Virus record (IMG/VR): IMGVR_UViG_3300027708_000019
Source of the DNA: a virus
Reading direction: 5' to 3' (one strand)
Length of the DNA stretch: 64,000 bases
Below the pieces are notes generated by a model. It saw only the letters and a program-made list of their open reading frames with translations. It did no database searches and had not been told where the DNA came from. The translations under genes and the position numbers were made by a program. Positions 3,722-46,550 of this stretch are shown one piece after another (position 1 is the first letter of the stretch; every line of letters starts with the position of its first letter).

Positions 3722-5980
3722 TTACCCAAAAATTGTATCTAAACTATTTGTAGTAGCATTATATACTTGATATACTGCGCTTACGTTACTTGCGTTTACG
3801 AAACCAACTTTACTTCCTGAACCTACATAAATGTTACCAACAACACCCAATCCACCACCAAGTTTTAATGAACCAGTAGTGCTAGATGTAGAAGCTGTTG
3901 TATCAGAAAGAGTTGGAGCACCTGTAAAAGTGCCAGACAATGCACCGCTATTAATAGTTGGAGATGTTAATGTTAATCCAGCAAATGTAGTTACTGTTGC
4001 GCCTAAAGAAACTGCTGTTGAACCAATAGTAACAGAACTGTTGGTCAACATGGTATTTGTTATAGAACTGGCACCCAACAAACCAGTAATATCTGCTTGA
4101 GCAACTGCCACAGTTCCAGTTACTAATCCCTTAGTGTTGGTAGTAATTTTCTTAAATGTGCCAGTACCAGAGTCAGTGATAGTTGCTAGTGTTAATGCGA
4201 TAGTTCCAGTGTTTAACGCAGTTGCTGGAGCAGTAGCATCACCAGTAACAGCAAGTGTTTGCGTATATACAAGTTGTTTATCATTCGTTACATTACCTAA
4301 ACCAACATCTGTGGATGTTAAAGTAACTACACCAGTTTTACCAGCGACAGAATCAACTGCTCCGCTGGTAATATAAACATAAACAGAACCTGACCATCTA
4401 TATGCTTTACTTGTATCTATGGCAATATAGATCTTTCCTGTTTCGCCAGTCGCAGGGAATGCTGCAAGGTTTGCATATTCAAGAACATCATCAACATATG
4501 ATGGCAAGTACGTAGAAGAAATTTTAGAAGTAGCATCAAGTGGCGCAACACCATTGGCAGCACCAACTAATGATGACGCAACACGAGCAGTAGAGTCAAC
4601 TGCGTTAATCGTAATATTAGCAGATCCATCAAATGAAACACCATTAATGGTACGAGCAGTTTGTAATATAGTTGCTGATCCAGCATTGCCAGTAACAGTT
4701 GTTTGAGCGGTAGAACTAATTACACCGCTGGCAATAGTGATTGTTGTACCATCAACTTTAACACCGCCAAGAACTGTTGTTGATGAGGTTGGTAGTGAGT
4801 AAGCATTAGGTATGTTTGTTAGATCATTATAACTACCAGAGAACAGAGTTGGTTTACCAGTTAGACTAGCGTATGCTCCATCAAACAATGTTGGCTTGTT
4901 GGTTAAGTCATTATAACTTCCACTGAACAATGCTGGTTTGTTTAGTATCTGTGCTAGTCCAGAACTGGCATTCCAATCACTATTAACTTGTGCGGCAGGT
5001 ATTGTTGGCTTGTTAGTTAAATCAGTATAACTTCCACTGAATGGTGCGGCTACACTGATAACACCTGCGTTGATAGTTATATTGCTACCAATCTTTACTC
5101 CACCTAATATTGTGTCAGTTGCTGTTGGTAAAGTATAAGCACTGGGTATTGTTGGCTTGTCAGTTAAGTCAGTATAACTACCTGAGAACAATGTAGGTTT
5201 GCCAGTTAGACTAGCGTATGCTCCATCAAACAATGTTGGTTTACCAGTTAGACTAGCGTATGCTCCATCAAACAATGTTGGTTTACCAGTTAGACTAGCG
5301 TATGCTCCATCAAACAATGTTGGTTTGTTTTTAATAAAACTTTTTAAAGTGTTGTCAGTAACATTCCAATCAGATTGTATCTGAGCAACACCACCTGAAC
5401 CACCACTTACTGCAGAGAATTCAAACTTTTTACTTGTACCATTGTACCCAAGATAATATCCATCTTGAATAGTAGAACGATCGATGTCGTCAAGATATCT
5501 TAGGTTTACTTCACCAGATCCTGGACCTGTGGCAGCAATGCGTCCGATTGCTTGCTCTAAAAATTTAAGTTTCTTTTGAATGCCAGTAATGTTGGGATCT
5601 ACTGGTTGTGGTGCTGGCTGTTGAAAAGAATCTTTATTGACTACTTCTTTTTCAACAATTACTTCTTTTTCAACAATTACTTCTTTTTCAACAATTACTT
5701 TTTTAACAGGTTGTTTCTTTTCAACAAACAACTCCATCATTTCACCAATATCATTATTGGCTTTGAGACTTTCTTTAACAGCTTTTAATGCTTTTCCTGC
5801 AGGTGTTTTTTCTTGTTCTTCTTTGAGTTTACGTTTCTCTTCAGCAGCAGCTTTGAATAGCGTAGAAAGATTTACTGGCTGTTCTGGCTCTGACTTTTGT
5901 TGTAGCAAAAGTTCTTCCTGCTCTTTGAGTTTACGTTTCTCTTCAGCAGCAGCTTTAAATAGATCACCAAGATCAGTCAT
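3722..5980 (-). CDS. Long tail fibre protein with repeat-rich N-terminus
   Basis: SGSYxDLxNKP, QSDWN, LGGVKVG, ARTINGVSFDGSANI and VDSVAGKTGVV fibre motifs. Confidence 0.7.
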   Translation of the reverse strand: MTDLGDLFKAAAEEKRKLKEQEELLLQQKSEPEQPVNLSTLFKAAAEEKRKLKEEQEKTPAGKALKAVKESLKANNDIGEMMELFVEKKQPVKKVIVEKEVIVEKEVIVEKEVVNKDSFQQPAPQPVDPNITGIQKKLKFLEQAIGRIAATGPGSGEVNLRYLDDIDRSTIQDGYYLGYNGTSKKFEFSAVSGGSGGVAQIQSDWNVTDNTLKSFIKNKPTLFDGAYASLTGKPTLFDGAYASLTGKPTLFDGAYASLTGKPTLFSGSYTDLTDKPTIPSAYTLPTATDTILGGVKIGSNITINAGVISVAAPFSGSYTDLTNKPTIPAAQVNSDWNASSGLAQILNKPALFSGSYNDLTNKPTLFDGAYASLTGKPTLFSGSYNDLTNIPNAYSLPTSSTTVLGGVKVDGTTITIASGVISSTAQTTVTGNAGSATILQTARTINGVSFDGSANITINAVDSTARVASSLVGAANGVAPLDATSKISSTYLPSYVDDVLEYANLAAFPATGETGKIYIAIDTSKAYRWSGSVYVYITSGAVDSVAGKTGVVTLTSTDVGLGNVTNDKQLVYTQTLAVTGDATAPATALNTGTIALTLATITDSGTGTFKKITTNTKGLVTGTVAVAQADITGLLGASSITNTMLTNSSVTIGSTAVSLGATVTTFAGLTLTSPTINSGALSGTFTGAPTLSDTTASTSSTTGSLKLGGGLGVVGNIYVGSGSKVGFVNASNVSAVYQVYNATTNSLDTIFG
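5187..5326. repeat. 42-bp tandem repeat (about 3.3 copies) encoding LFDGAYASLTGKPT; another copy near 4851-4893
   Basis: aacaatgttggtttaccagttagactagcgtatgctccatca repeated. Confidence 0.9.
5644..5700. repeat. 18-bp tandem repeat (3 copies) encoding EVIVEK
   Basis: acttctttttcaacaatt x3. Confidence 0.9.
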
Positions 5981-11927: not shown

Positions 11928-11956
11928 ATTATACTATAAAATACAGGAAATGTCAA
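11928..11956 (-). promoter_or_regulatory. Consensus sigma70 promoter
   Basis: TTGACA-17bp-TATAAT. Confidence 0.75.
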
Positions 11957-11957
11957 G

Positions 11958-13307
11958 CTACCCGAAGAACTCGTCCAGTCCTTGGGTTGTTGGTGCTTCG
12001 AAATGTTCATCGAACATATTTCTTGCATTTCTGGGGATATTTGGATCATAATTCGACTTCGTCTTGAGTTCGTTTAGGAAACCTGTAGTTCTACCCATAG
12101 CCAAGTCGATGTAGTGCTGAGCAACTACTTTTCGATCAAATTGTTTAATCAATTCGTAGTTATTTAGCTGAATCTGTCTGTAGTCTTGTTCGCGCATGAA
12201 ACAATAGTTAGCGATCGCTTCGCCATATTCTTTTGGTGTAAAATCCTTTTTGAGCATACAGTAGTTAACACCTGCCTTCAAAACAGTTCCCATACCCTCA
12301 TCGTTGTTGGAAACCCCATAATTTACAGCGATGGGCACAGTCCCGATGCGCATAGCATCAATGACAACCCTATTGAAATGCTCACCAAAAGTGTTAGACC
12401 AGCTAGGATCAACAAGAAATTTAGAAGTTGCCAAAATTTCGTCACGTTTTGCTCCAGAAATAAAACCAAGATATTGAAAATTGCCTGAATTTTCAGCATT
12501 CTCCCAAATACGTTTACCTTCTCTATCTGGTGTAACATCTGGATCATACTGAGAAGTCGCAAAATATTCTTCTTTACATTTATCTTTGGACATCATATAT
12601 GCTGCTTCAATACCATATCCACCAACCAGTGTTTTTACATCTTTCATGTAAGGAACAGCACGAACCAAATCATCGACACGTTTCCAACGCTTAAATGTTT
12701 GGATAGATAAAATCTTATTTTCACGCTGATTGAATGGTGGTGTTTCAGGAATACCAGCAATGTCTTGTGGGTTTAAAATCAAGGCACGTGGTACGTCCAT
12801 AAAATCAGCTGAGTCATATGCTGCTGGATGTACACAAGCCAAACCAGCAAAGTGTTTCTCAAACAAAACAATCCAAGGATATAACTTTTTAAGATTAGCA
12901 TCATGAATAATTGGAACCTGCTTTGATGTAATTTGTTCAATCATCGGCAGCCATTCTAGATACTGCTCAGTGTCTTTATTTTTAAAACCAAAAATAGACT
13001 GCCAAATAACCAAGTCGTGTTTGTTAGCATCTTCAACAAACTGATCAATAGACTCTTTAACTTTATACGAATAGTATGGAGCAATCCAGCCATCGCCTTG
13101 ATGAACAGGATAACCTGTACCGATACCAATTTCGTAGCCTTCTTTTAACTCAGAAGGAATTTCAACTGGCTTCACTTGTTTATTTGGTTTAAGATAAGCA
13201 AATGTTACCTCATGACCAATTTCTTTCAATCCTGCTACGAGATGTTCACAGTGATTGATAATACCTCCAAAGTTGTTGAAGGTGTGCATTACCATCATAA
13301 TCTTCAT
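11958..13307 (-). CDS. GT-B fold glycosyltransferase (GT4-like), probably DNA-modifying
   Basis: N-terminal MKIMMVMH...GGIINH, KRWKRVDDL, DPSW...EHFNRVVIDAM motifs; close to the TET gene; C-terminus LDEFFG. Confidence 0.8.
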   Translation of the reverse strand: MKIMMVMHTFNNFGGIINHCEHLVAGLKEIGHEVTFAYLKPNKQVKPVEIPSELKEGYEIGIGTGYPVHQGDGWIAPYYSYKVKESIDQFVEDANKHDLVIWQSIFGFKNKDTEQYLEWLPMIEQITSKQVPIIHDANLKKLYPWIVLFEKHFAGLACVHPAAYDSADFMDVPRALILNPQDIAGIPETPPFNQRENKILSIQTFKRWKRVDDLVRAVPYMKDVKTLVGGYGIEAAYMMSKDKCKEEYFATSQYDPDVTPDREGKRIWENAENSGNFQYLGFISGAKRDEILATSKFLVDPSWSNTFGEHFNRVVIDAMRIGTVPIAVNYGVSNNDEGMGTVLKAGVNYCMLKKDFTPKEYGEAIANYCFMREQDYRQIQLNNYELIKQFDRKVVAQHYIDLAMGRTTGFLNELKTKSNYDPNIPRNARNMFDEHFEAPTTQGLDEFFG

Positions 13308-13489
13308 AGTGTTTTCCTTAGTTCATAACTTTTATGTTGTTGTTCAAGCCACTCTTGTGCTTCTATTTCGCTGTCAAAATATGGACTCACCAAATTACGA
13401 TAAGTTCTATTGATCCAAAAATAAGTATAGGTGTGCATACCAACGTCCCTATACTTAATTAGTTCCATGCCATCAAGTCCAGAGTCCAT
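13304..13489 (-). CDS. Hypothetical protein
   Basis: Overlaps both neighbours; SPYFDSExEAxEW motif. Confidence 0.5.
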   Translation of the reverse strand: MDSGLDGMELIKYRDVGMHTYTYFWINRTYRNLVSPYFDSEIEAQEWLEQQHKSYELRKTL

Positions 13490-14321
13490 GGCGCACCTTG
13501 ATAAGTCGTATCATCATTTCTTCGTCTTCAGTCTCATACGCTTGTTCAATTTTATGACACTCATCAAGCATTTTAGAAACTCTTTCTTTTTCTTCTGGTG
13601 TTTTTTCTTCACGACCCATAAAGCCATATGGTTCGCCATCTTCATCGCGATCGTTTCTACGCTCATCGCAGTAAGCAGACCATCCTGATGCTTCGTGAGG
13701 ATCAACACGTTTTGGTCTTTCAATTGTCCACCAATTATATAGATCTAGAATTTCTTGTGCTTTAATTGCTTGGTGAGTTGGTTTACCATAATCAGGACTA
13801 TCTTTCTCTACCCACTGTTCATCATGAACCAACTTACGTTGCCATTCTAAATTAGCAAGACCACATTCAGGTTTGCGCCATGTGCGCCAGCGGAACCATC
13901 CCCAAGCCCACCATGGTGCAACAAATTTCTTACGAGCATCTTCATCCCATGCTACATGCCACCATGCTAATTCAATTTCAACAAAATCGACAAGTTCATT
14001 AAACAAACAAGGAAGAAACCTATTACCCACGTCACACCAACTACCAGGACTGATATCACGAGCATGGGCAGTAAGAGAATGAGTGCGAGTAACAAATCTA
14101 TTGTTAATATAATATTTGAGAGCATAAAGTTTGTCCACTGGATAAAAGATTGTTTTTTGAATAATATCAAGTCCTTCTTCTGCCAACCAGTAGCGGAAAG
14201 GATGTGACTTTTTTGCTTGCTTGTTCCATTTGTGCCAACCTTCGCTGGTTTCAGCAGTTGGTTTCATTGTGCCACGAAGCCAGTCGGCAAACTTAGAACA
14301 TGTCCAATAATTGTTTCTCAT
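13473..14321 (-). CDS. Trp-rich hypothetical protein
   Basis: 282-aa ORF with a GGAG SD and its own sigma70 promoter. Confidence 0.7.
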   Translation of the reverse strand: MRNNYWTCSKFADWLRGTMKPTAETSEGWHKWNKQAKKSHPFRYWLAEEGLDIIQKTIFYPVDKLYALKYYINNRFVTRTHSLTAHARDISPGSWCDVGNRFLPCLFNELVDFVEIELAWWHVAWDEDARKKFVAPWWAWGWFRWRTWRKPECGLANLEWQRKLVHDEQWVEKDSPDYGKPTHQAIKAQEILDLYNWWTIERPKRVDPHEASGWSAYCDERRNDRDEDGEPYGFMGREEKTPEEKERVSKMLDECHKIEQAYETEDEEMMIRLIKVRHGLWT

Positions 14322-14338
14322 AATTACTCCAAAAGTAT

Positions 14339-14367
14339 ATTATACTATGTATTTGAGTTTTTGTCAA
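14339..14367 (-). promoter_or_regulatory. Consensus sigma70 promoter
   Basis: TTGACA-17bp-TATAAT. Confidence 0.75.
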
Positions 14368-15686
14368 GCAAAGAATTCATCTAAGTCAGCGTTATTTGCT
14401 GCTGGGTGATACTTAGCAACCATCGCATCGCCATTTGGTTGTTTACGAAGATAGTCATACCATTCTTCATCATCCCACATTCCTGGACTTACGCCATTCC
14501 AAAGTTTCTTCCACAACTTATGTTCTTTATTTAGACGACGTGATTCAACATACTCATAACGAGCATTCTCATATTCCCAACTACCAAGTTGCATCATATT
14601 TTCACGAAGATAAACAACAAGAGAAATACGCTCTGAACCTTCTTCACAAACAATCGGTGTGTTACCATGGATGACTTCATGATTGTTTACCAATAACAAA
14701 TCTCCTGGACGAACATTAACAGCAGTGCGAATCTCTGGGAAAATTAAATAACCACCTGTATATTTACCATCATTAGACAATGTCAACAGATTAGACATAC
14801 CTTCAGTAAAATCACCAGCATCACGATGAGCAGCTGTACGGAATGTTTTATTAACTGTTACTGTAGTAAATGGTGTTGCCTCAATAACAAATTTCTGATC
14901 AATCTTATCAGTTGCTGTTTTCTGATTAGCATAACGCTGTGGTAGTAGTGTTTTAAAACCACGTGCCAATGATTGTAGAAATGGATATGCCATTCTAAAC
15001 TTCTCAGGATTATCTCGAGTATAAGTTGTCGCACGACCAAAAGGAATTCTAGGATAACGATCAAACCAACCTGCGATACCAGAATCAACTGGATTACCAT
15101 AAGATGTTTCACTAATCATAGTCATAACTTCTTCTGTTGCTTTCGCACGTTCTTCTGGATTGAGTTTGATGATTGAATCAACCCACTCATCGAAATTAAA
15201 CTTGTTACGGAAACGTGAGATAACCCAAACATTATTTTTACCAGAACCCAATGCTTTCAAACGTGATTCTTGCGTTGGATACTTTTCTCTAATTGTGGTA
15301 ATAACATCATCATCAGACAATCGAGCAAAACGAGCAGACAGCAACTCACTAATCATTTCTTCTTGATAGTTAGTAACCCACTCACGTCCTTCGCCTGTGA
15401 CAGAAGTTCCTGCTTTGATACCAGAAGCAAGTCCACGATTTTCAGTACGAACTGCTGCTTCACGCAATCCAACATATGCTTGTTCCTGTTCTTCTTTGGT
15501 GAAGAAGTTCTTACGGAATTTAAAAGCGATCTTTGCTTCGCTGTGTGGATTGTCGTCTTCATGATCAGGTGGCAAATAGAAATCAGTATCTTCCTCAACC
15601 AAAAGATCATAATGAGATTCATCTACGAACATACCAAGTAAATGTTCTGAATCGTGAATTTTATCTGCTACAATAATTTTTGTCAT
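14364..15686 (-). CDS. TET/JBP-family 2OG-Fe(II) 5-methylpyrimidine dioxygenase
   Basis: PFTTVTVNKTFRTAAHRDAGD (HxD), GGYLIFPE, HGNTPI (distal His), ERISLVVYLRE (RxS); C-terminus LDEFFA. Confidence 0.85.
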   Translation of the reverse strand: MTKIIVADKIHDSEHLLGMFVDESHYDLLVEEDTDFYLPPDHEDDNPHSEAKIAFKFRKNFFTKEEQEQAYVGLREAAVRTENRGLASGIKAGTSVTGEGREWVTNYQEEMISELLSARFARLSDDDVITTIREKYPTQESRLKALGSGKNNVWVISRFRNKFNFDEWVDSIIKLNPEERAKATEEVMTMISETSYGNPVDSGIAGWFDRYPRIPFGRATTYTRDNPEKFRMAYPFLQSLARGFKTLLPQRYANQKTATDKIDQKFVIEATPFTTVTVNKTFRTAAHRDAGDFTEGMSNLLTLSNDGKYTGGYLIFPEIRTAVNVRPGDLLLVNNHEVIHGNTPIVCEEGSERISLVVYLRENMMQLGSWEYENARYEYVESRRLNKEHKLWKKLWNGVSPGMWDDEEWYDYLRKQPNGDAMVAKYHPAANNADLDEFFA

Positions 15687-17077
15687 ACCTTAAATCCCTC
15701 AAAATTGTTTTCTTTCATTCTTTTGCCAAACTTAGACTGATCAAACAAAGGTGTGTCATCATCAACAGTTCCCTGTCCTGCGATATTCATTTGAGCACTC
15801 ATCTCAACATCATACAATCTCATTTGCTTTCTATCAATACCAATAACAAAACGCTTGAAATAATTTGGATCTGAATAACGATTCTTCAACTGTTTTACCA
15901 TAACCTGATTCATCTGATCCAACTCTTCAGTCGCAATTAACGCAACCATCAAATCAGCAGTTGCTGGCAAACCAAACGATTCTGAAGTATCCTCAAGTCC
16001 TGGATCTGTGTTAGCATATCCAGAACGAGTCGTTTGTGTTGCGGAAACAATTGGCACTTTATATTCACCAGCCAAACCACGCAACTCTTCAGCAATCGAC
16101 TTAATATATGTATAAGAGTTTACATTGGCTCCCATACGAATTCTTTGAGAAGAACAAATGTTCAAGTAATCAATGTAAATAATATCTGGTTTGAAATTAC
16201 GTTTCATCTTAAGTTCTTCAATCAATGCTCGGAAATGACCAGAATGAGCAGAAGAAGTTGGATATTCTTTAACAATGAATTTACCTTGTGTTTTGTTACG
16301 GACTTTCTCAAGTCTAGCATCAAATACACGTTTCTCAACCATAGGAATTGATTCAATTGACAACTCAAGTAAGTTCGCATCAATACGCTCAGCAATCTTT
16401 TCTTCAGCCATCTCCATAGTTATGTATAATACATTTTTACCAGTCAACAAATTAGCAGCAGCAAAATGACACATCGCCAAAGATTTACCAACACCTGTAC
16501 CTGCCAAAATAATGTTGAGGGTTTTCTTACTCAAACCACCATTCGTGATTTTGTTAAGGATCTCCAAGTCGAAAGGAATTTTCTCTTCAACTCTGTGATA
16601 AAAATCATACCTCGCATCTGAGTCATCAAGATAGTCATGTCCAACATGTGAGTCGAATGTGACACCCAACGCTTTAGACAATAAATCTGGGATCGCATCT
16701 TGTGTTCTAATCTTATCTTTACCATCAATAATTTTAATTGAATCGATAATCGCATTATAAACAGCCTTGTCTTTACAAAACTTTTCAGTAGAAGTTGTGA
16801 TCCAATCAATGTGAGTTTTCTCAGAATTGGTTGAATCGAGAATCTCATTCGCAAGTCTAACTTGATCTTCAGTTACATCGGTGCGATTTGAGATTTCAAT
16901 TTTCAATACATCTTTTGTTGGTGCTTCATTATATGTGACAAAGAATTTTGTTATCTCTTCAAAAACTACTCTGTCAGTTCTATCGGTAAAATATTCTGGC
17001 TGAAGGAAAGGCATAACCTTTCTTGAATATTCTTCATGACACAATAAATTACCGAAGATTTGGTCTTCAATTCGCAT
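15683..17077 (-). CDS. 41: Replicative DNA helicase gp41 (DnaB-like)
   Basis: AGTGVGKS, YITMEM, DYLNI, SATQTTR, LKNRY. Confidence 0.97.
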   Translation of the reverse strand: MRIEDQIFGNLLCHEEYSRKVMPFLQPEYFTDRTDRVVFEEITKFFVTYNEAPTKDVLKIEISNRTDVTEDQVRLANEILDSTNSEKTHIDWITTSTEKFCKDKAVYNAIIDSIKIIDGKDKIRTQDAIPDLLSKALGVTFDSHVGHDYLDDSDARYDFYHRVEEKIPFDLEILNKITNGGLSKKTLNIILAGTGVGKSLAMCHFAAANLLTGKNVLYITMEMAEEKIAERIDANLLELSIESIPMVEKRVFDARLEKVRNKTQGKFIVKEYPTSSAHSGHFRALIEELKMKRNFKPDIIYIDYLNICSSQRIRMGANVNSYTYIKSIAEELRGLAGEYKVPIVSATQTTRSGYANTDPGLEDTSESFGLPATADLMVALIATEELDQMNQVMVKQLKNRYSDPNYFKRFVIGIDRKQMRLYDVEMSAQMNIAGQGTVDDDTPLFDQSKFGKRMKENNFEGFKV

Positions 17078-18122
17078 CTACTTCTTCCTCTATCTCTTGT
17101 GGGGTATCTTCTTCACTACCATAATTATACTTGCTTTTGCAGTATTTGTCAAGTTGTTTCAAGATATCTTCGGAGAAAAATTCAGAAGGATTATTTGCGA
17201 TATTTTTGCCGAACACTTTACGTCCATCGTGGACTTCAATTCGACCACCTTGGGATTTCCAAATTCCTGCCTCAATCGCAAGATCAGCAAGTCCGTGGTA
17301 TCGGTCAAGACCTTTGGTAAATGAAAGTTTAGTTTCGACCATGGATTTCTCGCGAGTGAAGCGAGATTTTTCCAGTTTACATTTTATAATATTACCAACC
17401 ACTTCGGTGCCGTCTTTATCTTGCGATTTTGACAGAAACACAATAGTAGATGCTGCGTACTTAAGACCATCGCCACCACCCATAGTTTTCGTTGGCATAT
17501 ACGCACCAACAACAGCATAGGTATGATTAGTAACAACCATAGCAACATCCAACTTTGATAGTTTCAATGATAGAACACGAAATGCTCCACGAATTAACTG
17601 AGCACGTGTCATATCACGAGTATCTTTACCTTCAAGTGTATCTTCCATCTCTTTAGAAGTTGAGAGCATACCCAATGAATCAAGAAAGAACATCAATGGT
17701 GGACGATCTTTCTTTGGTGTTTTTTCATAAGCATCTAAAACTTTAGTAGCTTGAGTGCGGAATTCTTGAATCGTAGAAACAGGAACAATCATGAAACGCT
17801 TGGTATCAATACCACGATCAACCAACATATCTTTGTTCAGTGCTCCTTCTGTTTCAAAGTATATAACTCCAGCCTGTTCATTAGTTCGTAGAAAATTGTT
17901 CGCAATGCCAATAGCATAAAATGTTTTTCCTGTGGAAGACTCACCAGCCAGAGCTGTAACTTTGTTGCCAGGAAGACCACCATAGATGCTACCGCTGACA
18001 AGAGCATTAAGGGAATAAGAACCAGTGTCGATAAAACTACTAGTATCACCAACCACACCATCATCAGCAAGTCCCGCATATTCATTATCAAGTTCCTTTA
18101 CGATATTCTTTAAAAAACTCAT
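17067..18122 (-). CDS. uvsX: UvsX RecA-like recombinase
   Basis: GESSTGKT, FLDSLGML, DMTRA, MGGG. Confidence 0.95.
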   Translation of the reverse strand: MSFLKNIVKELDNEYAGLADDGVVGDTSSFIDTGSYSLNALVSGSIYGGLPGNKVTALAGESSTGKTFYAIGIANNFLRTNEQAGVIYFETEGALNKDMLVDRGIDTKRFMIVPVSTIQEFRTQATKVLDAYEKTPKKDRPPLMFFLDSLGMLSTSKEMEDTLEGKDTRDMTRAQLIRGAFRVLSLKLSKLDVAMVVTNHTYAVVGAYMPTKTMGGGDGLKYAASTIVFLSKSQDKDGTEVVGNIIKCKLEKSRFTREKSMVETKLSFTKGLDRYHGLADLAIEAGIWKSQGGRIEVHDGRKVFGKNIANNPSEFFSEDILKQLDKYCKSKYNYGSEEDTPQEIEEEVDAN

Positions 18123-18420: not shown

Positions 18421-20922
18421 TTAAAAGAATTCTGCCAAGTCATTCTTTTCGTCAACAGACCAGCCAATCGAATTCATAATTGCGGAAAGTGGGTCAAGGA
18501 AAACTTTTTCAAATTGTTTTTCATAATCTACGTATTTATGTAGGTCTAACTGTTTGGGTAATGTTGTAGTAAACGCAATAACATCTTCACGAATAGTATT
18601 TGGTTCACGAAGATAGATAAATTTAATTCTATCGCCTTCACGAATCGGTTGGTATAATTCTGTTAACCCAAGTTCCTTAATGTGATGATTGAACATCAAC
18701 GCACCTCGAACATGAATCGGTGTTGATTTGCGATAAATCGAACCAGAATCAGAATACTCTTTCAAATTGTTTACGCTTCGTGGGAATGCGATATCTTCAA
18801 TCGGTAACCCATAAAACTCTTTTCTAAAATCAACAATAAATTTACGTAATTGAATCTCATCACCAGCAATCAAAATCTTCATTGAATCTTTTAATTTACC
18901 ACGAACTACCATAGGGGTTGACGACTTAACCATCTCAAGACCCATGATTTTCATTTTGGGTTCAGCATATTGAACACCCTCAGAATTGTGTACGTTAAGA
19001 ACATAACGCTTCTTCGCAGTCCACACACCCTTGTCGGCAATAACTTCACGCTTCATAATCATTTTCTGAGAGAATGCGTTTTGTCTTTGAGCCAAGTCAG
19101 AATAACACTTATCTATGTATAATTGAATTTTATCTTCACAAATCTTATCAATATATTCAACAACTTTTGTTTTATCTTTCTGTTGTTCTTTCGTGAATAC
19201 TTTATCAACAAGTGGACCAAATCGTAGATATACAGAGTCAGTGTCAACAGCAATTACATAATCTTCTTTTTCAGTCTTGAGTAATTTGTTGAAGTATTCA
19301 TTAAATTTCTTTTCCATCCAACGAATAGACAACTGACCACTCAACGTGATACCTTCAGACATGCGTTTGTCATAATATCGGAAATATTGATTAGCCAACG
19401 CACCATAAGCTGAGTTCAACGCAATCTTAAGAGCCATCTGAAGATTATTCAATCGAGATATCTCATTTGTTAGAGATTCGTCTTTTGTGTTTTCATATTC
19501 TTGTTGAATCTTCAACATTTGTTTCTTTGCTTTACTGCGATTGATGTACATAGTTTCCATCAACTCAGGCAAGAAACCTTTGATGTCTTTACGGTAACAC
19601 CAACCATTCGCAGTACAAGATAAATCTAAATCATGAAAACCACCAGTTTCTTCATGCTCAAGGAAATACCCAACACCACCAACGTGTTTATAACCTGCGT
19701 CCATTGTTTCAGGACTAATGTTATATTGCATAATCAAATGAGGATATAGACTGTTCAAGTCAAAAGAAACAACCCAGTTATGCATACCAACAAGTGGTTC
19801 TTTAACATAAGCACCTTCAATAACAGAATCTTTATCATTGTGTTGTTTGTTTGGAATCACAATCTTTTTAGAACGCAAATGATTATAGATGATTGTATCC
19901 CACATTCTAACTTGAGAGAACACATCCTCATAGTTTACCTTTGCGTTATACGCCATAACCATAGCCAATTCAATCAACTTCATCTTGTCTTCAAGTTTAT
20001 CAACAAGCACAGTATCATGAATGTTATAATCAACAAACTTCTTCCATCCGTAGGTATAGAAATCTTTGAAAGTATCGTATTCAGAATAATCTAATTTGTT
20101 TTCACCAAGTTCAACAAACGCAATGTGATCCAACTTGTATGATTCTTGCATTGAGTAAGTAAACTTTTTATACAAGTCAATATAATCAAGAGCAGAAATA
20201 CCTGCGATGTCATATGAGATTTCTTCAGATCCCTTAACATGAATCCTACGTTCGTTTATAATACCCCATGGGGATAGTTGCTTAGCATGAGATTCGCCAA
20301 GCACATTCATAATCCTGCGTGTTAGATACGGAATATCAAAGAAGTTGATGTTCCAGCCTGTAACGATGTCGGGATAGTTTTCTTTCCAGAAGTCCAGGAA
20401 ATTCATAAGAAGTGCTCGCTCACTTTCGCAGTGATGAAATCTTACTTCTCTATTTCCTGTGTATGGATTTTTACCAAAGGTATGAATCTCTTTGGTTTTG
20501 TTGTCCATAAGTGTGATGAGAAGGATTTCCTCATTAGCAGTTTCTATGTTAGGAAATCCTTCCTCGGTTGTGGTTTCAATATCAATAGAGAAACATTTGA
20601 TTAGATCTTTATTGAATGTGATGTCAGTAGGATATGTATCTGAGATATACTGGTAAGCAAAGTTTGTGTTACCATATACCATGAATCCTTGAACGTCTTT
20701 ATAACGATCGATAAATTCTTTTGAGTCGCGAATAGATCCTGGACGAATTGAGTAAACAACCTCACCATCAAGTGTACGGAAAATTTCACCAGCATTTTTA
20801 CTCTTAGATGATGCGTAGAGTGTTGGCTTGAAATCTATTTTGTCTGTATATTGTTTTCCGTTTTGATATCCACGTACACAAAGTTTGTTTCCCAGAGGGA
20901 ACACATTTGTATAAAATTCCAT
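18421..20922 (-). CDS. 43: DNA polymerase gp43 (family B)
   Basis: DIETT exonuclease I, SFDLNSLYP, KIALNSAYG, DTDS, KKRY. Confidence 0.98.
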   Translation of the reverse strand: MEFYTNVFPLGNKLCVRGYQNGKQYTDKIDFKPTLYASSKSKNAGEIFRTLDGEVVYSIRPGSIRDSKEFIDRYKDVQGFMVYGNTNFAYQYISDTYPTDITFNKDLIKCFSIDIETTTEEGFPNIETANEEILLITLMDNKTKEIHTFGKNPYTGNREVRFHHCESERALLMNFLDFWKENYPDIVTGWNINFFDIPYLTRRIMNVLGESHAKQLSPWGIINERRIHVKGSEEISYDIAGISALDYIDLYKKFTYSMQESYKLDHIAFVELGENKLDYSEYDTFKDFYTYGWKKFVDYNIHDTVLVDKLEDKMKLIELAMVMAYNAKVNYEDVFSQVRMWDTIIYNHLRSKKIVIPNKQHNDKDSVIEGAYVKEPLVGMHNWVVSFDLNSLYPHLIMQYNISPETMDAGYKHVGGVGYFLEHEETGGFHDLDLSCTANGWCYRKDIKGFLPELMETMYINRSKAKKQMLKIQQEYENTKDESLTNEISRLNNLQMALKIALNSAYGALANQYFRYYDKRMSEGITLSGQLSIRWMEKKFNEYFNKLLKTEKEDYVIAVDTDSVYLRFGPLVDKVFTKEQQKDKTKVVEYIDKICEDKIQLYIDKCYSDLAQRQNAFSQKMIMKREVIADKGVWTAKKRYVLNVHNSEGVQYAEPKMKIMGLEMVKSSTPMVVRGKLKDSMKILIAGDEIQLRKFIVDFRKEFYGLPIEDIAFPRSVNNLKEYSDSGSIYRKSTPIHVRGALMFNHHIKELGLTELYQPIREGDRIKFIYLREPNTIREDVIAFTTTLPKQLDLHKYVDYEKQFEKVFLDPLSAIMNSIGWSVDEKNDLAEFF

Positions 20923-24186: not shown

Positions 24187-24609
24187 TTACTTCTTAACTT
24201 TTTTCCCAATATTATACTTGGGTACAAGTTCCCATTCGTCTTTCTCTTTGAAAGACAATACTTTAATTTGTGACAATGATGCTTGTGGTTCAGCTTCTGC
24301 TGGTTTTATAATTTTCAACAGTCCCCAATCTTGAAGCAACACAGCAACTGTGTTCCTACGTTCAATATCATTGTTTGTTAAATTTGATTCTTTTCCATCC
24401 AAAGCAAATAGTTCTTTGAAATGCACCAAGAAATATCTACCCTGTTTGTGTAGAATATGACATGACTGAAACAACTTATGCTCTTTACGTGATGCGATCC
24501 CAATACGTGTCAATGTTTCCTTAATCTTAAGGAAATTGTCTGGTTCTGGGAGTGTCACTTCGAGCATACTGTCTGATGTCCAATCATAATAAACAGTTTC
24601 AACACTCAT
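24187..24609 (-). CDS. regA: RegA translational repressor
   Basis: FLKIKETLTRIGIAS, QSCHILHKQGRY, HFKELF. Confidence 0.97.
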   Translation of the reverse strand: MSVETVYYDWTSDSMLEVTLPEPDNFLKIKETLTRIGIASRKEHKLFQSCHILHKQGRYFLVHFKELFALDGKESNLTNNDIERRNTVAVLLQDWGLLKIIKPAEAEPQASLSQIKVLSFKEKDEWELVPKYNIGKKVKK

Positions 24610-24989
24610 TTTCTTCCACCTTTATCCATTTTTCGTTTTATCAGTTGTAACTGTTCTTCTGTCAAAATGTCGAGAACAGTCATTGCTTTACGCTTACTAT
24701 AATCATAGTATTGCATTACCATTTCCAAGTCATCTGTTTTTGGGACTTTCTCAGCCCATTTACTGAATCGTTTTTTCTTGGTAATTGTATTTAGCAAATA
24801 CGAAAATTGCCAATCTTTCGGAATGGCACGATGGATATTCATCTGATTGGCTTGAAGTACTGTATCTGGAAAGTACGCCAAACCTCTGTTGATGATGAAA
24901 GAGTTATAGTCTTTTTCAGCTTGTGGTTCTTTTATTAGATCCTTGTTTTTGTTGTCGCAGATCGCATTAATAAAATCAAATGGGGTCAT
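24606..24989 (-). CDS. 62: Clamp loader small subunit gp62
   Basis: Synteny 45-44-62-regA; INRGL, KKKRFSKW. Confidence 0.92.
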   Translation of the reverse strand: MTPFDFINAICDNKNKDLIKEPQAEKDYNSFIINRGLAYFPDTVLQANQMNIHRAIPKDWQFSYLLNTITKKKRFSKWAEKVPKTDDLEMVMQYYDYSKRKAMTVLDILTEEQLQLIKRKMDKGGRK

Positions 24990-24996
24990 GATAACC

Positions 24997-25938
24997 TCAC
25001 TTGAATTTACAGTTTGCCATAATCTCTGTCAAAGCAGCAACATTATTAACTTCAATGTCAGCAACGAATGCTGCTTTATACTGATAATCAGCAAGTATCA
25101 ACACAAGCTGAGGAACAGATTGTCCCTCAACAATATCTGCAGCAGTGTCATAAAGTCTTCGGAATAATACCGAAGTTTCAATGTCGTTGTTTCTAGCAAC
25201 CCACTTACGTGCTTCAATAAAGTTTTTCTCCTTGAGATAACCAACCAACTCTTTCATGGTTTCATCGGACATGTTGGCCAAAATGCCAGCATCAACTTTA
25301 CCACTAACACTATATCTTTGAAGTTCGTTAAGAACTCTACGGAAGTCTGGGAAAAATGTTTCTACAACTTTAGCAACAACTTTAGAATCAGATTCTACAC
25401 CTTCAGATGTTAGAACATCATTAACCCTGCGGAAAAATGATGCTGCGATCTTTGGTTTATCTTTGCTTTCAATCTTAAAGTCTACGACTGCACATCGACT
25501 GTGGAGTGGGGCAATGATTCTGTTTTTGAAGTTACATGTAAGGATGAATCGACAGTTGTTTGAAAACTCTTCGATAAAAGCACGCAAGGCTGCTTGTGTG
25601 TCTGGCGTAAGATAGTCGGCTTCGTCAAGGATGACGACTTTTGCACCTTCTGCGGTGATACTAACAGACGAGGCAAATTGTTTGATTTTTGTACGTAAGA
25701 CATCGATTCCTCTTTCTTCAGATCCGTTGATAAACAAATAATCAGCACCCAACTCATTACACAAAGCACGTGCCACTGTAGTTTTACCTACACCAGCACT
25801 GCCTGAGAAAATAAAATTGGGCAACTGTCCCTCAGCAATATATTGCTTAAATGTATCTTTGATTTGTTGCGGTAGGATGCAATCATCAATAACTTGTGGG
25901 CGATACTTCTCGCACCAGAGAAACTCTTCACGACTCAT
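24997..25938 (-). CDS. 44: Clamp loader large subunit gp44
   Basis: WCEKYRP, GVGKTT, LDEAD, SRC, PDFRR. Confidence 0.97.
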   Translation of the reverse strand: MSREEFLWCEKYRPQVIDDCILPQQIKDTFKQYIAEGQLPNFIFSGSAGVGKTTVARALCNELGADYLFINGSEERGIDVLRTKIKQFASSVSITAEGAKVVILDEADYLTPDTQAALRAFIEEFSNNCRFILTCNFKNRIIAPLHSRCAVVDFKIESKDKPKIAASFFRRVNDVLTSEGVESDSKVVAKVVETFFPDFRRVLNELQRYSVSGKVDAGILANMSDETMKELVGYLKEKNFIEARKWVARNNDIETSVLFRRLYDTAADIVEGQSVPQLVLILADYQYKAAFVADIEVNNVAALTEIMANCKFK

Positions 25939-25956
25939 AATATAATATCCTTAAAA

Positions 25957-26616
25957 TTATTCAGATGTTGAATCAGATTCAACTGCTACATAATATGATA
26001 GACTTGTTTTTGCAGATTTAAAACGACAAATTTTCATCTTAGCAATAGAAACATCATATGCTCCTGGAAGCATTTTGAAGTTTTCAATTTTAAGGTTTGC
26101 TGTAAAGTTCTTATCAGTTGTACCAACCTCAACTTCAAATTTATTTGTTAGAGGATTTTTCTTATCCACAACAACAGCATTTACTTTGCCATTTGAACCG
26201 ATGAAAGATACATCAGATACTTTAAGAACACCAGCAGCACGGATCAAGTTTGATAGATCGCCAGCTGAGAGTGAGAAATTGATTTCCGCTTCTGGGAAAT
26301 TGATTGCCTTGGCAGGTGTCTTCAAAGTAGTTTCTTCCGCAGCACGGTAACTAATTTGATTCTTACCTTCTTTGATTGTTACAGTGTTTCCACTGAAAGA
26401 TAGATCTGGGTCATTGAACAATGACAATGTGCCAAGAAATTCATTGATATCATAGATACCAAAATTTTGTGGGAATGTTTCAGGAACAATTACTTCCCCA
26501 AACACAGTTTTGTTTTCAGTCATCGAATAGATGCTGTTACCTTCACGAAGCAACAGGTTTAAATTGATAGAAGCAAAGTTCTTCAATACCTCTTGCGTTT
26601 CTTTACTAATCTTCAT
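25957..26616 (-). CDS. 45: Sliding clamp gp45
   Basis: LKNFASIN, FGIYDINEFL, YYVAVE; synteny. Confidence 0.95.
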   Translation of the reverse strand: MKISKETQEVLKNFASINLNLLLREGNSIYSMTENKTVFGEVIVPETFPQNFGIYDINEFLGTLSLFNDPDLSFSGNTVTIKEGKNQISYRAAEETTLKTPAKAINFPEAEINFSLSAGDLSNLIRAAGVLKVSDVSFIGSNGKVNAVVVDKKNPLTNKFEVEVGTTDKNFTANLKIENFKMLPGAYDVSIAKMKICRFKSAKTSLSYYVAVESDSTSE

Positions 26617-26657: not shown

Positions 26658-26686
26658 ATTATACCTATAAAAGTGTTTTGTGTCAA
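26658..26686 (-). promoter_or_regulatory. Consensus sigma70 promoter for the 45-44-62 operon
   Basis: TTGACA-17bp-TATAAT. Confidence 0.7.
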
Positions 26687-27234
26687 ATATATTTACTGTT
26701 GGCAGGATGATCTAACGAATGTGGCACATCGAACACAAAGGTAAGACGTTCTTCGTCACCAACTTGTTTCGCAGCATGATACTCTTTATTATTAAACCAA
26801 AAGAAAGTTCCTGGCTCAATGATATGTTGCTCATCGCCACATGTGTAAAGATATTTTCCTTGTAGACAAAGATGAAATCTATCACGTGTTTTGTAATATG
26901 TTCCATCATCGATGTGAGACAAAACTTCTCCACCAATTGCCAACTTGAAAAATGCTGCTCGGGAATGTTCAGTTATTCCACGCTCGATCAGCCATTTCCT
27001 AATCTCAGTGTATTTTGTGTATAGTGGTGTGTTCATTTGTAGTTCTGAGTTCTTAGGATTGTCTCCTTCTTTACGAACTACTGCCATAGTCAAAGGCATA
27101 AAGCCATATGGCTTGAGATCGCCAGCAATGTTCTTATAAGAAGACACTGCTTGCCAATCTTGTGGGTTGTCCAATACTTGTTCTAGTATCGAACTAACAT
27201 CAACATTATAATTCCAAAATTTAAAATTACTCAT
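26683..27234 (-). CDS. Aspartyl/asparaginyl beta-hydroxylase-like 2OG-Fe(II) oxygenase
   Basis: HIDDGTYY, RFHLCL, WFNNKEYH, RLTFVFD. Confidence 0.8.
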   Translation of the reverse strand: MSNFKFWNYNVDVSSILEQVLDNPQDWQAVSSYKNIAGDLKPYGFMPLTMAVVRKEGDNPKNSELQMNTPLYTKYTEIRKWLIERGITEHSRAAFFKLAIGGEVLSHIDDGTYYKTRDRFHLCLQGKYLYTCGDEQHIIEPGTFFWFNNKEYHAAKQVGDEERLTFVFDVPHSLDHPANSKYI

Positions 27235-42593: not shown

Positions 42594-42826
42594 TATGCTC
42601 CTCTCGCTGCTGCTTTCACAACAGGTTTCGTTGGTAGTTGACTATTGTTTTTCATCACACGTTTGGTTGCTTCCTTAACAAGTTTCTTTGCTGCTTTCGG
42701 ACCAACTTGTGGTGTGATTTCTTTTCTTGCTTTTTTCTTTGCTTTACGCAACTCACGTTCTTGTTTCCATCGTGTTTTGCTATCAATGTATATAGGTGCG
42801 GTAACGATCGCTGATTCATCTGTCAT
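42593..42826 (-). CDS. Basic hypothetical protein
   Basis: Lys/Arg-rich coupled ORF. Confidence 0.6.
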   Translation of the reverse strand: MTDESAIVTAPIYIDSKTRWKQERELRKAKKKARKEITPQVGPKAAKKLVKEATKRVMKNNSQLPTKPVVKAAARGA

Positions 42827-43446
42827 AATTTTAACTCCGTAAGTGAATTGTTAGAACCAAGTGTGCCTTTAACAAACACATTAAATGCCAAACTAATCCG
42901 TGTCTTAGTATTTCCTTCTGGTATAATTTCTACCATATGCTGCATCCAACTTGGGAAAATCAACAACAGCCCTGTTCTGGTTGAGAAATCCCATGTCTCT
43001 GTGTTGAAATGATTTACTTCTTTGTGTTGAATTTTAATTGTGCGATACGTATCATTGATGAACACAAGTTTATCTTTAGTATCATCAGCAGCAATATAGA
43101 ACACACCAGACAGATAACTGTTACTATGATTATGTTTGTGGTGCCATTCGCCAGGACGTGTCCAGTTCATCCAACTTTGTGTGATATACAATTCTATATC
43201 GTTTTGGGCTGGTGCCATAATATTGTCACGCCACTGTAACAATACATCTTCAATTTCTTTTTTGATATCTGCCAACTCTGGCTCATTCAAAATATAATTG
43301 TTGTGGCTCATTGAGTTGCCAACATTTCTTGTTTGTTTGCTATTTTGTTTAGCAAGAAACTTTCTTTCCACATCAGTGAAGTCACGTTCTAATTGTGATA
43401 CACAGATAGGTGTTGGAAATATTGGTTGAATGATTGGATCTCTCAT
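42823..43446 (-). CDS. 2OG-Fe(II) oxygenase (TIGR02466-like)
   Basis: IFPTP, QSWMN, HKHNHSNS, SGVFY, FPSWMQHMV, RISLAFN. Confidence 0.85.
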   Translation of the reverse strand: MRDPIIQPIFPTPICVSQLERDFTDVERKFLAKQNSKQTRNVGNSMSHNNYILNEPELADIKKEIEDVLLQWRDNIMAPAQNDIELYITQSWMNWTRPGEWHHKHNHSNSYLSGVFYIAADDTKDKLVFINDTYRTIKIQHKEVNHFNTETWDFSTRTGLLLIFPSWMQHMVEIIPEGNTKTRISLAFNVFVKGTLGSNNSLTELKL

Positions 43447-43580
43447 TTAAAATTTTCCTTGTAATATTTGAACATCTTCACATACCATGCGAATCGTTTT
43501 GGCTCATGTTCAAAGTTTGGTAACTCACCATAATGCTCAAGCATTTCGTTATAAAATTTCAATACTTCCTCATCTGTCAT
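43443..43580 (-). CDS. Small hypothetical protein
   Basis: Manual translation MTDEEVLKFYNEMLEHYGELPNFEHEPKRFAWYVKMFKYYKENFK, coupled to gp46. Confidence 0.6.
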   Translation of the reverse strand: MTDEEVLKFYNEMLEHYGELPNFEHEPKRFAWYVKMFKYYKENFK

Positions 43581-45289
43581 ACTATCACCGAGAAGTCATT
43601 TTTCTTTTCAAATTTAACAACTGATCTAAATTTATCAAACAGTTGGTCACCTTTGTGGCTGATGACAAACACATTCGTCTTATCATCAAAACTATTCATC
43701 AGCGATAAGAAATAATCGGTACCTGACACATCCAAACTACTGTCAAAGATTTCATCAAGTAACAATAGGTTTGTATTAACAGAGTTTTTCATCTTAGCAA
43801 TCTGTCTCCATGTGAATAACATTGCCAAGTCAATGCGCATCTTCTCACCTTCAGAGAATGAATCATATGTGAATTCATCACGATATCTGGCTTTGATCTT
43901 TTCGTTGAATGTTTCATCCAACTCAAAATGAACATAGAAGTCCATTGATGCCAAATATTTGTTGATCAATTTATTCATCACAGGCAAATACTCACGGATG
44001 ATTGTTGTTTTGATTCCTGTGTCTCTCAATAGATTTGATGCTAGTTCTTCATATTGTCTTTTCTCAATGAGTTCATTTTTTCTATTAAGATATGACAACG
44101 CTTCTTCAGCCATTGCCTTGAGTTTTGACTTCTCATCATCCACATTACCAGTATCATTCTTTGCGTTTTCCATTTCCTCAGCCAATTCTCTGTTAAGTTT
44201 ATTCAACAAAGAAACAGTTTGATTGGCTGTGGATATTTCGATGTTCTTATCTGTTATTTGTTCTTGTATTGCATTGATGGTTTCTAGTCTGGTAGTCAAC
44301 TTTCCTAGTGCCTTTGTAATCTCGTCAATATTCGCTCGATTTTGTTCAATTTCGCGATTAATTTCGTCAATAATTGAGGATTTATGCTCATGTGGGATGT
44401 CTTGTTCACACTGAGGGCATATATCATTATTGTTAAAGAAATCGACAGTTACAGTGAGATCTGTGCTCTTGTTAGATTTCTTATTGGCAAAAACTTTCGC
44501 CTTTTCGATGTCTTCGAGAACTGACTTCCTGTCTGTGATACTCGATTTAAGATTACCAAGGTCTTGATTGAGAACATTAAGAGTTTCATTCGTGGTAATG
44601 ATTTGTACTTCATTATCGCTAATCTTTTTCTGTATCGCTGATACAGCATCTTTTCTAGTTTCGAGCAAAATCTTAATGGTTTTCTGCTGATTGTCAACCC
44701 TCTCACGTGCCAAGTTGAGCGCAGATTCGGTACGATTGATTTCATCTTTTGTCTCCTGCATTCTTTGTTTCAACAACGTGTTCATTGTGCTGAACACACG
44801 GATATCTAAGATATCTTCGATAACCTCACGTCTTTGATGTGATGGCAACTGCATGAATGGCACAAATGAAGCACTACCAAGTATAACTACTTGAGTAAAG
44901 GTTTTATAATTCAACTTCAGAATCTGTTGTTCAAGAACCTTTTGGTAGTCTCTTGATGCAGCATCCTGATTCATTAATTCATTGTCGCACCAGATTTCAA
45001 ATTTGTTTGGTTTGATTGTACGAATAACTTTATAATCTTTACCACCAACAGTAAATTCAACTGTGGTTTCACAGTTCTTTCCATTAATGCTGTTAATCAA
45101 CTGTGGTTTATTGATGTTACGAAATGGTTTTCCAAACAATGAAAAGCACAATGCATCTAGGATTGTGCTTTTACCTTCACCATTTTTACCAACGATTAAT
45201 GTACTTGATGATTTGTCAAGTAGAATTTTGTTTGCTTGGTTACCTGTTGATAGGAAATTTTTCCATTCAACACTTTTGAATTTAATCAA
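43577..45289 (-). CDS. 46: Recombination endonuclease subunit gp46 (Rad50/SbcC-like)
   Basis: GKNGEGKST, CPQC hook, FSEGEKMRID, LLDEIFD, ISHK. Confidence 0.97.
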   Translation of the reverse strand: MIKFKSVEWKNFLSTGNQANKILLDKSSSTLIVGKNGEGKSTILDALCFSLFGKPFRNINKPQLINSINGKNCETTVEFTVGGKDYKVIRTIKPNKFEIWCDNELMNQDAASRDYQKVLEQQILKLNYKTFTQVVILGSASFVPFMQLPSHQRREVIEDILDIRVFSTMNTLLKQRMQETKDEINRTESALNLARERVDNQQKTIKILLETRKDAVSAIQKKISDNEVQIITTNETLNVLNQDLGNLKSSITDRKSVLEDIEKAKVFANKKSNKSTDLTVTVDFFNNNDICPQCEQDIPHEHKSSIIDEINREIEQNRANIDEITKALGKLTTRLETINAIQEQITDKNIEISTANQTVSLLNKLNRELAEEMENAKNDTGNVDDEKSKLKAMAEEALSYLNRKNELIEKRQYEELASNLLRDTGIKTTIIREYLPVMNKLINKYLASMDFYVHFELDETFNEKIKARYRDEFTYDSFSEGEKMRIDLAMLFTWRQIAKMKNSVNTNLLLLDEIFDSSLDVSGTDYFLSLMNSFDDKTNVFVISHKGDQLFDKFRSVVKFEKKNDFSVIV

Positions 45290-46353: not shown

Positions 46354-46550
46354 TAGCTGAAGTCCAAGTCTGCGTCAGGATATCCTTCGGGAATTTCTAT
46401 TTGTCCTTGTTCGACAACTCTATCTCCCACTCTTTTTGCGAATTCATCCGCATCTTGTTTTGATCTATAAAATTTAGATAGAATAGCACTTTCCGCAGAT
46501 GATTCTTGCGGACGAAATGTTACTTTATATAAGAATTTTGTTTCACTCAT
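46353..46550 (-). CDS. Hypothetical protein
   Basis: Coupled ORF. Confidence 0.55.
   Translation of the reverse strand: MSETKFLYKVTFRPQESSAESAILSKFYRSKQDADEFAKRVGDRVVEQGQIEIPEGYPDADLDFS

Follow-up and report, generated by a model that had tools for sequence, protein, structure and literature searches.

The analysed window, a stretch of 64,000 nucleotides from a T4-like phage (IMG/VR virus record IMGVR_UViG_3300027708_000019), carries nearly all its genes on the minus strand, and its own coordinates are used throughout. A TET/JBP dioxygenase (TET) and a GT-B glycosyltransferase, encoded among the replication genes, were found to end in the same short peptide as the phage's own DNA polymerase gp43. 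It is most likely through this peptide that gp43 holds on to the sliding clamp gp45. The two enzymes probably form a clamp-tethered early DNA hypermodification module of two operons, with thymine as the most likely substrate, and DNA modification is probably tied to replication. The sequence-only reading that preceded this analysis had placed both enzymes on gp45; that interpretation is supported by the comparisons below, in which the binding itself is deduced from the peptides. The features that carry the argument are as follows.

11958-13307, minus strand: GT-B (Glycos_transf_1, PF00534) glycosyltransferase of 449 residues, presumed to be a DNA glycosyltransferase
11961-11981, minus strand: tail GLDEFFG of the glycosyltransferase, putative gp45-binding epitope
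14364-15686, minus strand: TET/JBP 2-oxoglutarate/Fe(II) dioxygenase of 440 residues (PF12851)
14367-14387, minus strand: tail DLDEFFA of TET, putative gp45-binding epitope
18421-20922, minus strand: gp43, family-B DNA polymerase with PolB exonuclease and polymerase domains; tail DLAEFF at 18424-18441
25957-26616, minus strand: gp45 sliding clamp, proposed docking partner (PF09116; full-length T4/RB69 alignment)
46543-47103, minus strand: candidate gp55 late sigma factor, adjoining gp47, with a weak Sigma70_r2 match
46564-46581, minus strand: gp55 epitope SLETFL, followed by an acidic extension

The ends read earlier as ADLDEFFA in TET, QGLDEFFG in the glycosyltransferase and NDLAEFF in gp43 were found exactly so, as was SLETFL near the C-terminus of the gp55 candidate, the full end of which is NSLETFLEEDSNE. 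The tail consensus of TET, the glycosyltransferase and gp43 is x-L-[D/E/A]-[D/E]-F-F-[A/G]. The pattern L[DEAG][DE]FF occurred exactly three times in the 20,257 residues of the predicted window proteins, and all three copies were the extreme C-termini of gp43, TET and the glycosyltransferase, with no internal copy. The number of C-terminal occurrences expected from composition was 0.0008. Among the six-frame open reading frames (ORFs) of at least 40 residues (n = 629), the pattern was detected within the last 15 residues only in the same three proteins. A 752-residue protein (3722-5980, minus strand) ending in NSLDTIFG was considered as a fourth clamp client and rejected, the C-termini of its homologs being different. 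This protein is repetitive and rich in Lys and Glu, its homologs in the relatives share only the N-terminus, and the likeness of its end is probably due to chance.

The codons of the three tails, CTG GAC GAG TTC TTC, TTA GAT GAA TTC TTT and TTG GCA GAA TTC TTT, differ synonymously, which indicates selection on the peptide and not on a DNA element. No shared sequence was detected in the DNA around the three tail-coding stretches beyond the tails themselves. A repeat or a promoter constraint at the DNA level was excluded as the cause of the shared tail by the synonymous differences; the -35 box of the promoter behind TET overlaps only the TET stop codon and one base before it.

The conservation of the tails was determined in related IMG/VR records (designated G) and in individual loci (designated L). 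G002, the nearest of the records tested, differs from the window. In G003 (165 kb, with terminal repeats) and in G005, only gp43, TET and the glycosyltransferase carried the tail among 850-930 ORFs, that is, the tail was exclusive to these proteins in two of the three near-complete relatives; in G004, TET has the variant DLGDEWFA. In both enzymes the tail was conserved in the homologs while the preceding linker varied. All 24 complete TETs in 25 loci (43-100% identity) ended in the tail when degenerate and variant forms are included, among them the TET of Cr30, the tail of which is reduced to ..ATLF. In these homologs, a conserved YHP block is followed by a variable stretch and then by the tail. 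The glycosyltransferase homologs (53-98% identity) ended in xL[DEN]x[FL]F[GAS] in 118 of 120 cases, the exceptions being one truncated protein and one with a short extension past the motif; here a conserved EHFE block is followed by 5-7 freely varying residues and the tail. The tail took the form xL[DEA][DE]FF[AGVS] in the T4-like TET clade and xL[DEA][DE]FF[AG] in gp43 of the relatives. Altogether, hundreds of homologs retain the tails, with identities as low as 41%.

A wider survey of TETs covered 150 cluster representatives (50% identity). About three quarters of the complete sequences in the closest 35, most of which have the long T4-like architecture, were tailed, while hardly any of about 110 short TETs with the core only carried the tail. 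TETs from phages lacking a T4-type replisome were tailless. The TET of S-CBWM1, in which no gp43 or gp45 match was found, has no tail; neither have the ParB-associated TET of HTVC112P and the TET of P12024L, a 36-kb phage of non-T4 type with its own primase. Many of the short phage TETs (about 300 residues; P0161-P0269) end in another motif, ...EEL(E/K)RAK..(R/K)xGDPL(Y/W), which could be a docking peptide for a different partner, for example ParB or a host clamp.

In T4-like phages the tail was detected on three TET architectures, namely the long form of the window, a 366-residue form in L096 and a 328-residue form in Melnitz. The C-terminal half of gp43 in L096 ends in TLDDLFG and the TET in SLDDLFG, LDDLFG being present on both, and no further tailed enzyme was recorded for this locus. 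In DLP6, gp43, TET and the TET-associated glycosyltransferase (TAGT) end in TLDSFFA, TLGDFFV and DLSSFFN, respectively, with FF in all three. The corresponding ends in Cr30 are DLSSLFD in gp43, the degenerate TET end given above and DLSKLF in a TAGT-like protein. In L094, both TET and the glycosyltransferase end in SLDSFFA, and gp43 lies outside the locus. In Melnitz, the TET-like protein ends in NLNDFLGE and adjoins a C5-methyltransferase, and gp43 ends in TLEDFFG. The tail variants thus track lineages, although imperfectly.

Several of these loci have peculiarities of their own. In L096 (8550-13293 of a 220-kb T4-like contig), gp43 is split into an N-part of 484 residues and a C-part of 293 residues, between which the TET and a GIY-YIG (SegE-like) homing endonuclease are situated; polymerase residues of approximately 483-539 were not located in this locus. 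In Methylophilales phage Melnitz-3 (L180:1344-3528), an HhaI-like C5-methyltransferase without a tail, followed by the TET-like protein, lies between gp43 and UvsX. In the L018 lineage, where TET ends in SLADFLG, a GT-B homolog was not detected in the locus; a 335-residue protein after TET (L018:11321-12328), with no Pfam match and ending in ...KIDLSFL, may be a different partner enzyme.

The same tail was found on further DNA-modifying enzymes. In DLP6 and Cr30 the tailed partner of TET is the TAGT (PF20691) and not a GT-B enzyme (L001:3057-3920 and L003:10238-11164, respectively). All 13 further TAGT homologs (tailed TAGTs of L184-L196) ended in SLEDFF, TLDEFFG or similar, and tails of this kind were also present on the TET and gp43 encoded beside them. 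The TAGT of the non-T4-like S-CBWM1 ends in ...HELEDLLP instead. In C48C1, a D12-class N6-adenine methyltransferase (Dam; L085:14480-15364) encoded just downstream of gp43 ends in STLDAFFG. The 76 full-length Dam homologs (53-93% identity; loci L099-L178) were all tailed, a few of them in divergent form. They belong to T4-like cyanophage-type phages and are often encoded just downstream of gp43, which, where captured, almost always carries the same motif, mostly TLEDFFG. TET, GT-B, TAGT and Dam have no detectable sequence similarity to one another; four unrelated families acting on DNA bases therefore carry the polymerase tail in T4-like phages. The recognisable carriers in genome-wide scans for the tail were gp43, gp55 and DNA-modifying enzymes, together with one baseplate protein. 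The latter, a 233-residue Cr30 protein ending in KDFFL (PF12322), was rejected as a client and treated as a chance match. A 658-residue fusion of TET/JBP with a P-loop nucleotide kinase (PF18751; L097:1259-3235) ends in the tail-like ADLSEMFG.

The clamp epitopes of T4 were read directly from the T4 record, and the LDFL-type ends described earlier for gp43, gp55 and gp33 were present: gp43 ends in ...SLDFLFG, gp55 in ...SLDFLYEAND and gp33 in ...TLDFLL. These epitopes are interchangeable clamp-binding motifs, short, hydrophobic and acidic (PMC2988020), preceded by a divergent, probably unstructured linker (PMC2988020, Geiduschek and Kassavetis review), and RB69 gp45 has been crystallised with the C-terminal 11-mer peptide of the polymerase (PMC2988020). 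The tail of the window gp43 is positionally equivalent to SLDFLFG of T4 gp43. The assignment of 25957-26616 to gp45 was confirmed (PF09116), with end-to-end alignment to T4 1CZD and RB69 1B77/1B8H at about 1e-26, and the gp44/gp62 clamp loader is also encoded. The gp55 candidate is 45% identical to a DLP6 gene annotated as 'sigma factor late transcription'. Five of the six gp55 homologs examined keep xL[DES]x[FWL][FLMV] with an acidic extension, like SLDFLYEAND of T4, and no such epitope was found in the last 18 residues of the DLP6 homolog. Both established clamp clients recognisable in the window, gp43 and gp55, carry the motif. Candidates for gp33 were found adjoining gp59 with weak matches (E 0.001-0.01) at G003:18743-19006, G004:140478-140750, G005:105138-105413 and C48C1:111879-112124 (coordinates of stitched records); of the clamp epitope they have the initial TLD alone.

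The window TET matched PF12851 above the curated threshold (90 bits, cut-off 34.9; E 1.2e-25). Its iron triad, H287-x-D289 and H340, and the 2-oxoglutarate-binding R353 were invariant in 14 close homologs and conserved to at least 90% among 132 diverse homologs. An AlphaFold2 model built from an alignment of these 132 sequences had a predicted local distance difference test score (pLDDT) of 94.7 and a predicted template modelling score of 0.91; an earlier model from a 14-sequence alignment (pLDDT 47) was discarded. The top Foldseek matches were CcTet, human TET2, NgTET1 and CMD1 with E about 1e-10, and the predicted fold is the TET-type double-stranded beta-helix. The pLDDT of the last 10 residues was 78, compared with 96-98 in the preceding blocks. 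The TET is of long architecture, extended by about 190 residues at the N-terminus and by about 60 at the C-terminus. The glycosyltransferase matched PF00534, also above the curated threshold (37.5 bits, cut-off 26.4; E 2.2e-9). It had 316 homologs at E<=1e-5, which carry PF00534 or PF13692, and no match among PDB sequences, hence no solved relative by sequence. Of the 25 TET loci examined at the outset, 11 have it beside TET, and the same arrangement recurred in L093 and L094. The linkage with TET and the tail suggest that its acceptor is DNA containing a 5-hydroxymethylpyrimidine.

The organisation of the module and its promoters is given below.

17124-17152, minus strand: perfect sigma-70 consensus promoter (TTGACA-17-TATAAT, 12/12), upstream of gp41-TET
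15683-17077, minus strand: gp41 replicative helicase (DnaB_C at 9e-20)
14339-14367, minus strand: perfect sigma-70 consensus promoter (12/12), overlapping the TET stop codon, upstream of ORF282-ORF61-GT
13473-14321, minus strand: ORF282, Trp-rich protein of 282 residues, conserved in relatives, without the tail
13304-13489, minus strand: ORF61, 61 residues, overlapping the end of ORF282 and the start of the glycosyltransferase (GT) gene
11928-11956, minus strand: perfect sigma-70 consensus promoter (12/12) directly behind the GT stop, where the module ends

The coupling of TET to gp41 described earlier agrees with the coordinates: the TET start and the gp41 stop share 4 bases, which fits translational coupling. 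The glycosyltransferase, placed about 1 kb downstream, lies 1,057 bases from the TET stop, with ORF282 and ORF61 in between; the reading frames of ORF282, ORF61 and the glycosyltransferase overlap in series. All three TTGACA-17-TATAAT promoters are situated on the minus strand at or directly after stop codons, and the -35 box of the middle one takes in the TET stop codon. The promoters mark off gp41-TET and ORF282-ORF61-GT as two units of early type. ORF282 matched neither Pfam nor PHROG, and its Atlas neighbours are viral hypothetical proteins only; its homologs were detected in 16 related loci, whereas it is absent in L093 and replaced in L094. ORF61 is weakly conserved in 4 further loci.

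From these data we infer that both enzymes bind gp45 and act at the fork on phage DNA in preference to host DNA. TET and the glycosyltransferase would be made early, together with the replisome. The substrate of TET would be a 5-methylpyrimidine in DNA, most likely thymine, which it would oxidise to 5-hydroxymethyluracil (5hmU), and the glycosyltransferase would then glycosylate the new hydroxyl, giving a base-J-like product. The C-terminal peptide, carried on a linker of about 6-8 variable residues, would dock each enzyme on the gp45 trimer, which gp44/62 is expected to load at primer termini, forks and nicks. Trimers that stay behind on the nascent phage DNA would carry or concentrate the enzymes there, which might raise their local concentration, make them processive and direct them preferentially to phage DNA. 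The timing of late transcription could also become coupled to modification if the enzymes compete with gp43, gp55 and gp33, each clamp having three sites. More broadly, enzymes that modify DNA after replication might in general dock on gp45 in T4-like phages, and gp45 might even be an activator or processivity factor that they require, at least four families having acquired the tail; this wider proposal is tentative, its chances being put slightly below even.

The sequence-only reading had left the substrate as either 5-methylcytosine (5mC) made elsewhere or thymine, of which thymine is now favoured. The lack of a visible C5-methyltransferase held up: among the window ORFs scanned, neither PF00145 (C5-methyltransferase) nor ParB was detected, and no PF00145 match was obtained in five related records, of which three are at least 90% complete and in which the positive controls worked. 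PF00303 (ThyA-type), PF02086 (Dam), TAGT and ParB (PF02195) were likewise not found in these records, with positive controls, whereas ThyX is encoded in four of the five. This combination makes thymine the likelier substrate. In the lack of both a C5-methyltransferase and ParB, the related records and the window ORFs scanned agree with the ParB-independent thymine dioxygenase type (O'Toole 2026). Relatives are also linked to thymidine hypermodification: an amino acid:DNA transferase, a gene of this kind, adjoins TET in Cr30, and another link is the tailed fusion of TET with a P-loop kinase. In a published network analysis, phage 5mYOX enzymes without a C5-methyltransferase neighbour group with proven thymine dioxygenases (PMC13229309), and most phage 5mYOX enzymes are estimated to make 5hmU (PMC13229309; Pyle et al.). 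The route from thymine through 5hmU to glycosyl-5hmU is therefore considered rather likely. The other route, in which 5mC supplied by the host or by an unrecognised phage methyltransferase would yield glycosylated 5-hydroxymethylcytosine (5hmC), draws on the characterised phage TETs of clades A and B, which oxidise 5mC (PMC8256090), on the distant T4-like Melnitz, which pairs its tailed TET-like gene with a C5-methyltransferase beside gp43, and on phage enzymes that act on T and 5mC alike. Given the missing PF00145 matches, three of the records being nearly complete, the presence of ThyX, the thymidine-hypermodification genes of relatives and the network grouping, this route appears unlikely.

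Coincidence or a composition effect as the origin of the resemblance can be regarded as effectively refuted. The motif is short, and NSLDTIFG at the end of the 752-residue protein apparently arose by chance, but three copies against 0.0008 expected, none of them internal, the retention of the tail in remote homologs and its recurrence in unrelated enzyme families are decisive against this explanation. The shared tail might instead bind a partner other than gp45, such as a replisome protein, a chaperone or a protease recognising a C-terminal degron, so that the enzymes would be co-regulated with gp43 and not tethered. Such a partner would fit with the gp33 candidates lacking the FF part of the motif and with the difference in detail between LDEFF and LDFLF of T4. 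However, the position of the tail in gp43 is that of an established clamp epitope in T4/RB69 (PMC2988020; match to the 1B8H family), the core is retained here in gp55, the other established client, phages without gp45 also lack the tail, and a degron on a replicative polymerase is implausible. A different partner is accordingly judged improbable. The same low probability is assigned to a mainly regulatory role, in which the tails of abundant early TET and glycosyltransferase would bind gp45 in order to compete with gp43 and gp55. The change-over from replication to late transcription would thereby be modulated, or late transcription held back until the DNA is modified, with targeting being secondary. 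The gp45 trimer has only three sites, common to gp43, gp55 and gp33 (PMC2988020), the genes of both enzymes lie behind perfect early promoters, and clamp binding by T4 alpha-glucosyltransferase (alpha-GT) does not determine glucosylation levels (PMC13216743), all of which would suit regulation. On the other hand, four DNA-modifying families are tailed and no non-DNA enzyme in the genomes surveyed is, which argues for substrate targeting rather than generic competition.

Several observations weigh against clamp tethering of the module as proposed. The tail is only 5-7 residues long, the linkers ahead of it are short, and AlphaFold2 gives TET residues 435-439 as a helix (pLDDT about 78) that is not clearly disordered. 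The gp33 candidates of this phage group have TLDV or LDIDV at the C-terminus instead of the full motif, and the TET of L026 has the variant DLGDEWFA. The co-variation is imperfect, since the glycosyltransferase of L093 ends in DLESLFG while gp43 and TET there end in FF. The absence of a C5-methyltransferase beyond the ORFs of the window rests on the records of relatives. Promoter swaps in T4 indicate that the clamp affinity of alpha-GT is not what sets glucosylation levels (PMC13216743), and tethering may therefore matter little quantitatively.

Compared with the epitopes of T4/RB69 gp43, gp55 and gp33, the tails described here are likewise extreme C-terminal, short and acidic/hydrophobic, in the register [S/T/D]-L-D-x-hydrophobic-F-[G/A], and they too follow a variable linker, with the cognate gp45, gp44 and gp62 encoded nearby. 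The middle residues are E-F-F here and F-L-F in T4 gp43. The T4/RB69 carriers are a polymerase and transcription factors, whereas a dioxygenase and a glycosyltransferase are the predicted binders in the present phage. The closest functional precedent is T4 alpha-GT, which co-purifies with gp45 (Sommer 2004, confirmed in PMC13216743), modification alongside replication having been proposed. As predicted for the window enzyme, it is a phage DNA glycosyltransferase associated with the sliding clamp. However, it binds gp45 without a canonical tail, has no sequence homology to the window glycosyltransferase and acts on 5hmC incorporated before replication. In the T4 record, neither alpha-GT (ending in ...EQFDIITK) nor beta-GT has a gp43-like tail.

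The neighbourhood of TET and a glycosyltransferase, and the post-replicative mode of modification, resemble the known phage clusters of 5mYOX/TET and glycosyltransferase genes (Burke 2021 PMC8256090; Pyle 2023/24; O'Toole 2026 PMC13229309). One 5mYOX subclass needs the DNA-clamp-like activator ParB, which shows that a clamp-like partner can activate a phage 5mYOX. No ParB was found in the related records, and the long architecture of the present TET is a further difference from the known clusters. The 5mYOX papers name clamp or gp45 genes as neighbours only and do not mention a gp45-type tail, and in a full-text literature search no paper was found that links TET/5mYOX, TAGT, GT-B or Dam to gp45-binding tails. 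Among eukaryotic systems, DNMT1 is targeted to new DNA by a short clamp motif, the PIP-box, that binds PCNA (PMC9690074); this is an analogy only, as clamp, motif and chemistry all differ. The base J pathway is also eukaryotic and is targeted by a J-binding or SNF2 domain instead of a clamp tail, with a glycosyltransferase of a different family. In trypanosomatids, JBP1/2 oxidise thymine in DNA to 5hmU and JGT adds the sugar.

The reason why phages use post-replicative 5mYOX modification has been called 'a mystery' (PMC13229309). A clamp tail, if it acts as proposed, would be a concrete and testable answer to how phages modify their own DNA efficiently and selectively. The clients of gp45, up to now the polymerase, the late sigma factor, the co-activator and alpha-GT, would be extended by four base-modifying families, giving a viral counterpart of PCNA-DNMT1 and a second pairing of a 'DNA clamp plus thymine dioxygenase' beside the ParB-dependent subclass. 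The inactivity of some phage 5mYOX clades in E. coli assays without gp45 might have the same explanation, if those clades carry the tail. C-terminal His tags were present on the enzymes of one published in-vitro study, and gp45 was missing from the in-vivo screens; each of these could mask enzyme activity. Tail peptides could further serve as portable tags steering enzymes to replicating phage DNA. The cultured relatives, Stenotrophomonas phage DLP6 and Caulobacter phage Cr30, make the prediction directly testable.

The other replication and T4-type genes located in the window were the following.

50269-51624, minus strand: gp23
47633-49147, minus strand: UvsW
45286-46353, minus strand: gp47
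43577-45289, minus strand: gp46
24997-25938, minus strand: gp44 clamp loader (AAA and Gp44_lid)
24606-24989, minus strand: gp62 clamp loader (Phage_clamp_A)
24187-24609, minus strand: RegA
17067-18122, minus strand: UvsX

Two further proteins, both without the tail, adjoin genes of this set: a cupin or Asp-Arg-hydroxylase-like protein next to gp45 (26683-27234, minus strand) and a 2OG-Fe(II)_Oxy_5 protein next to gp46 (42823-43446, minus strand).

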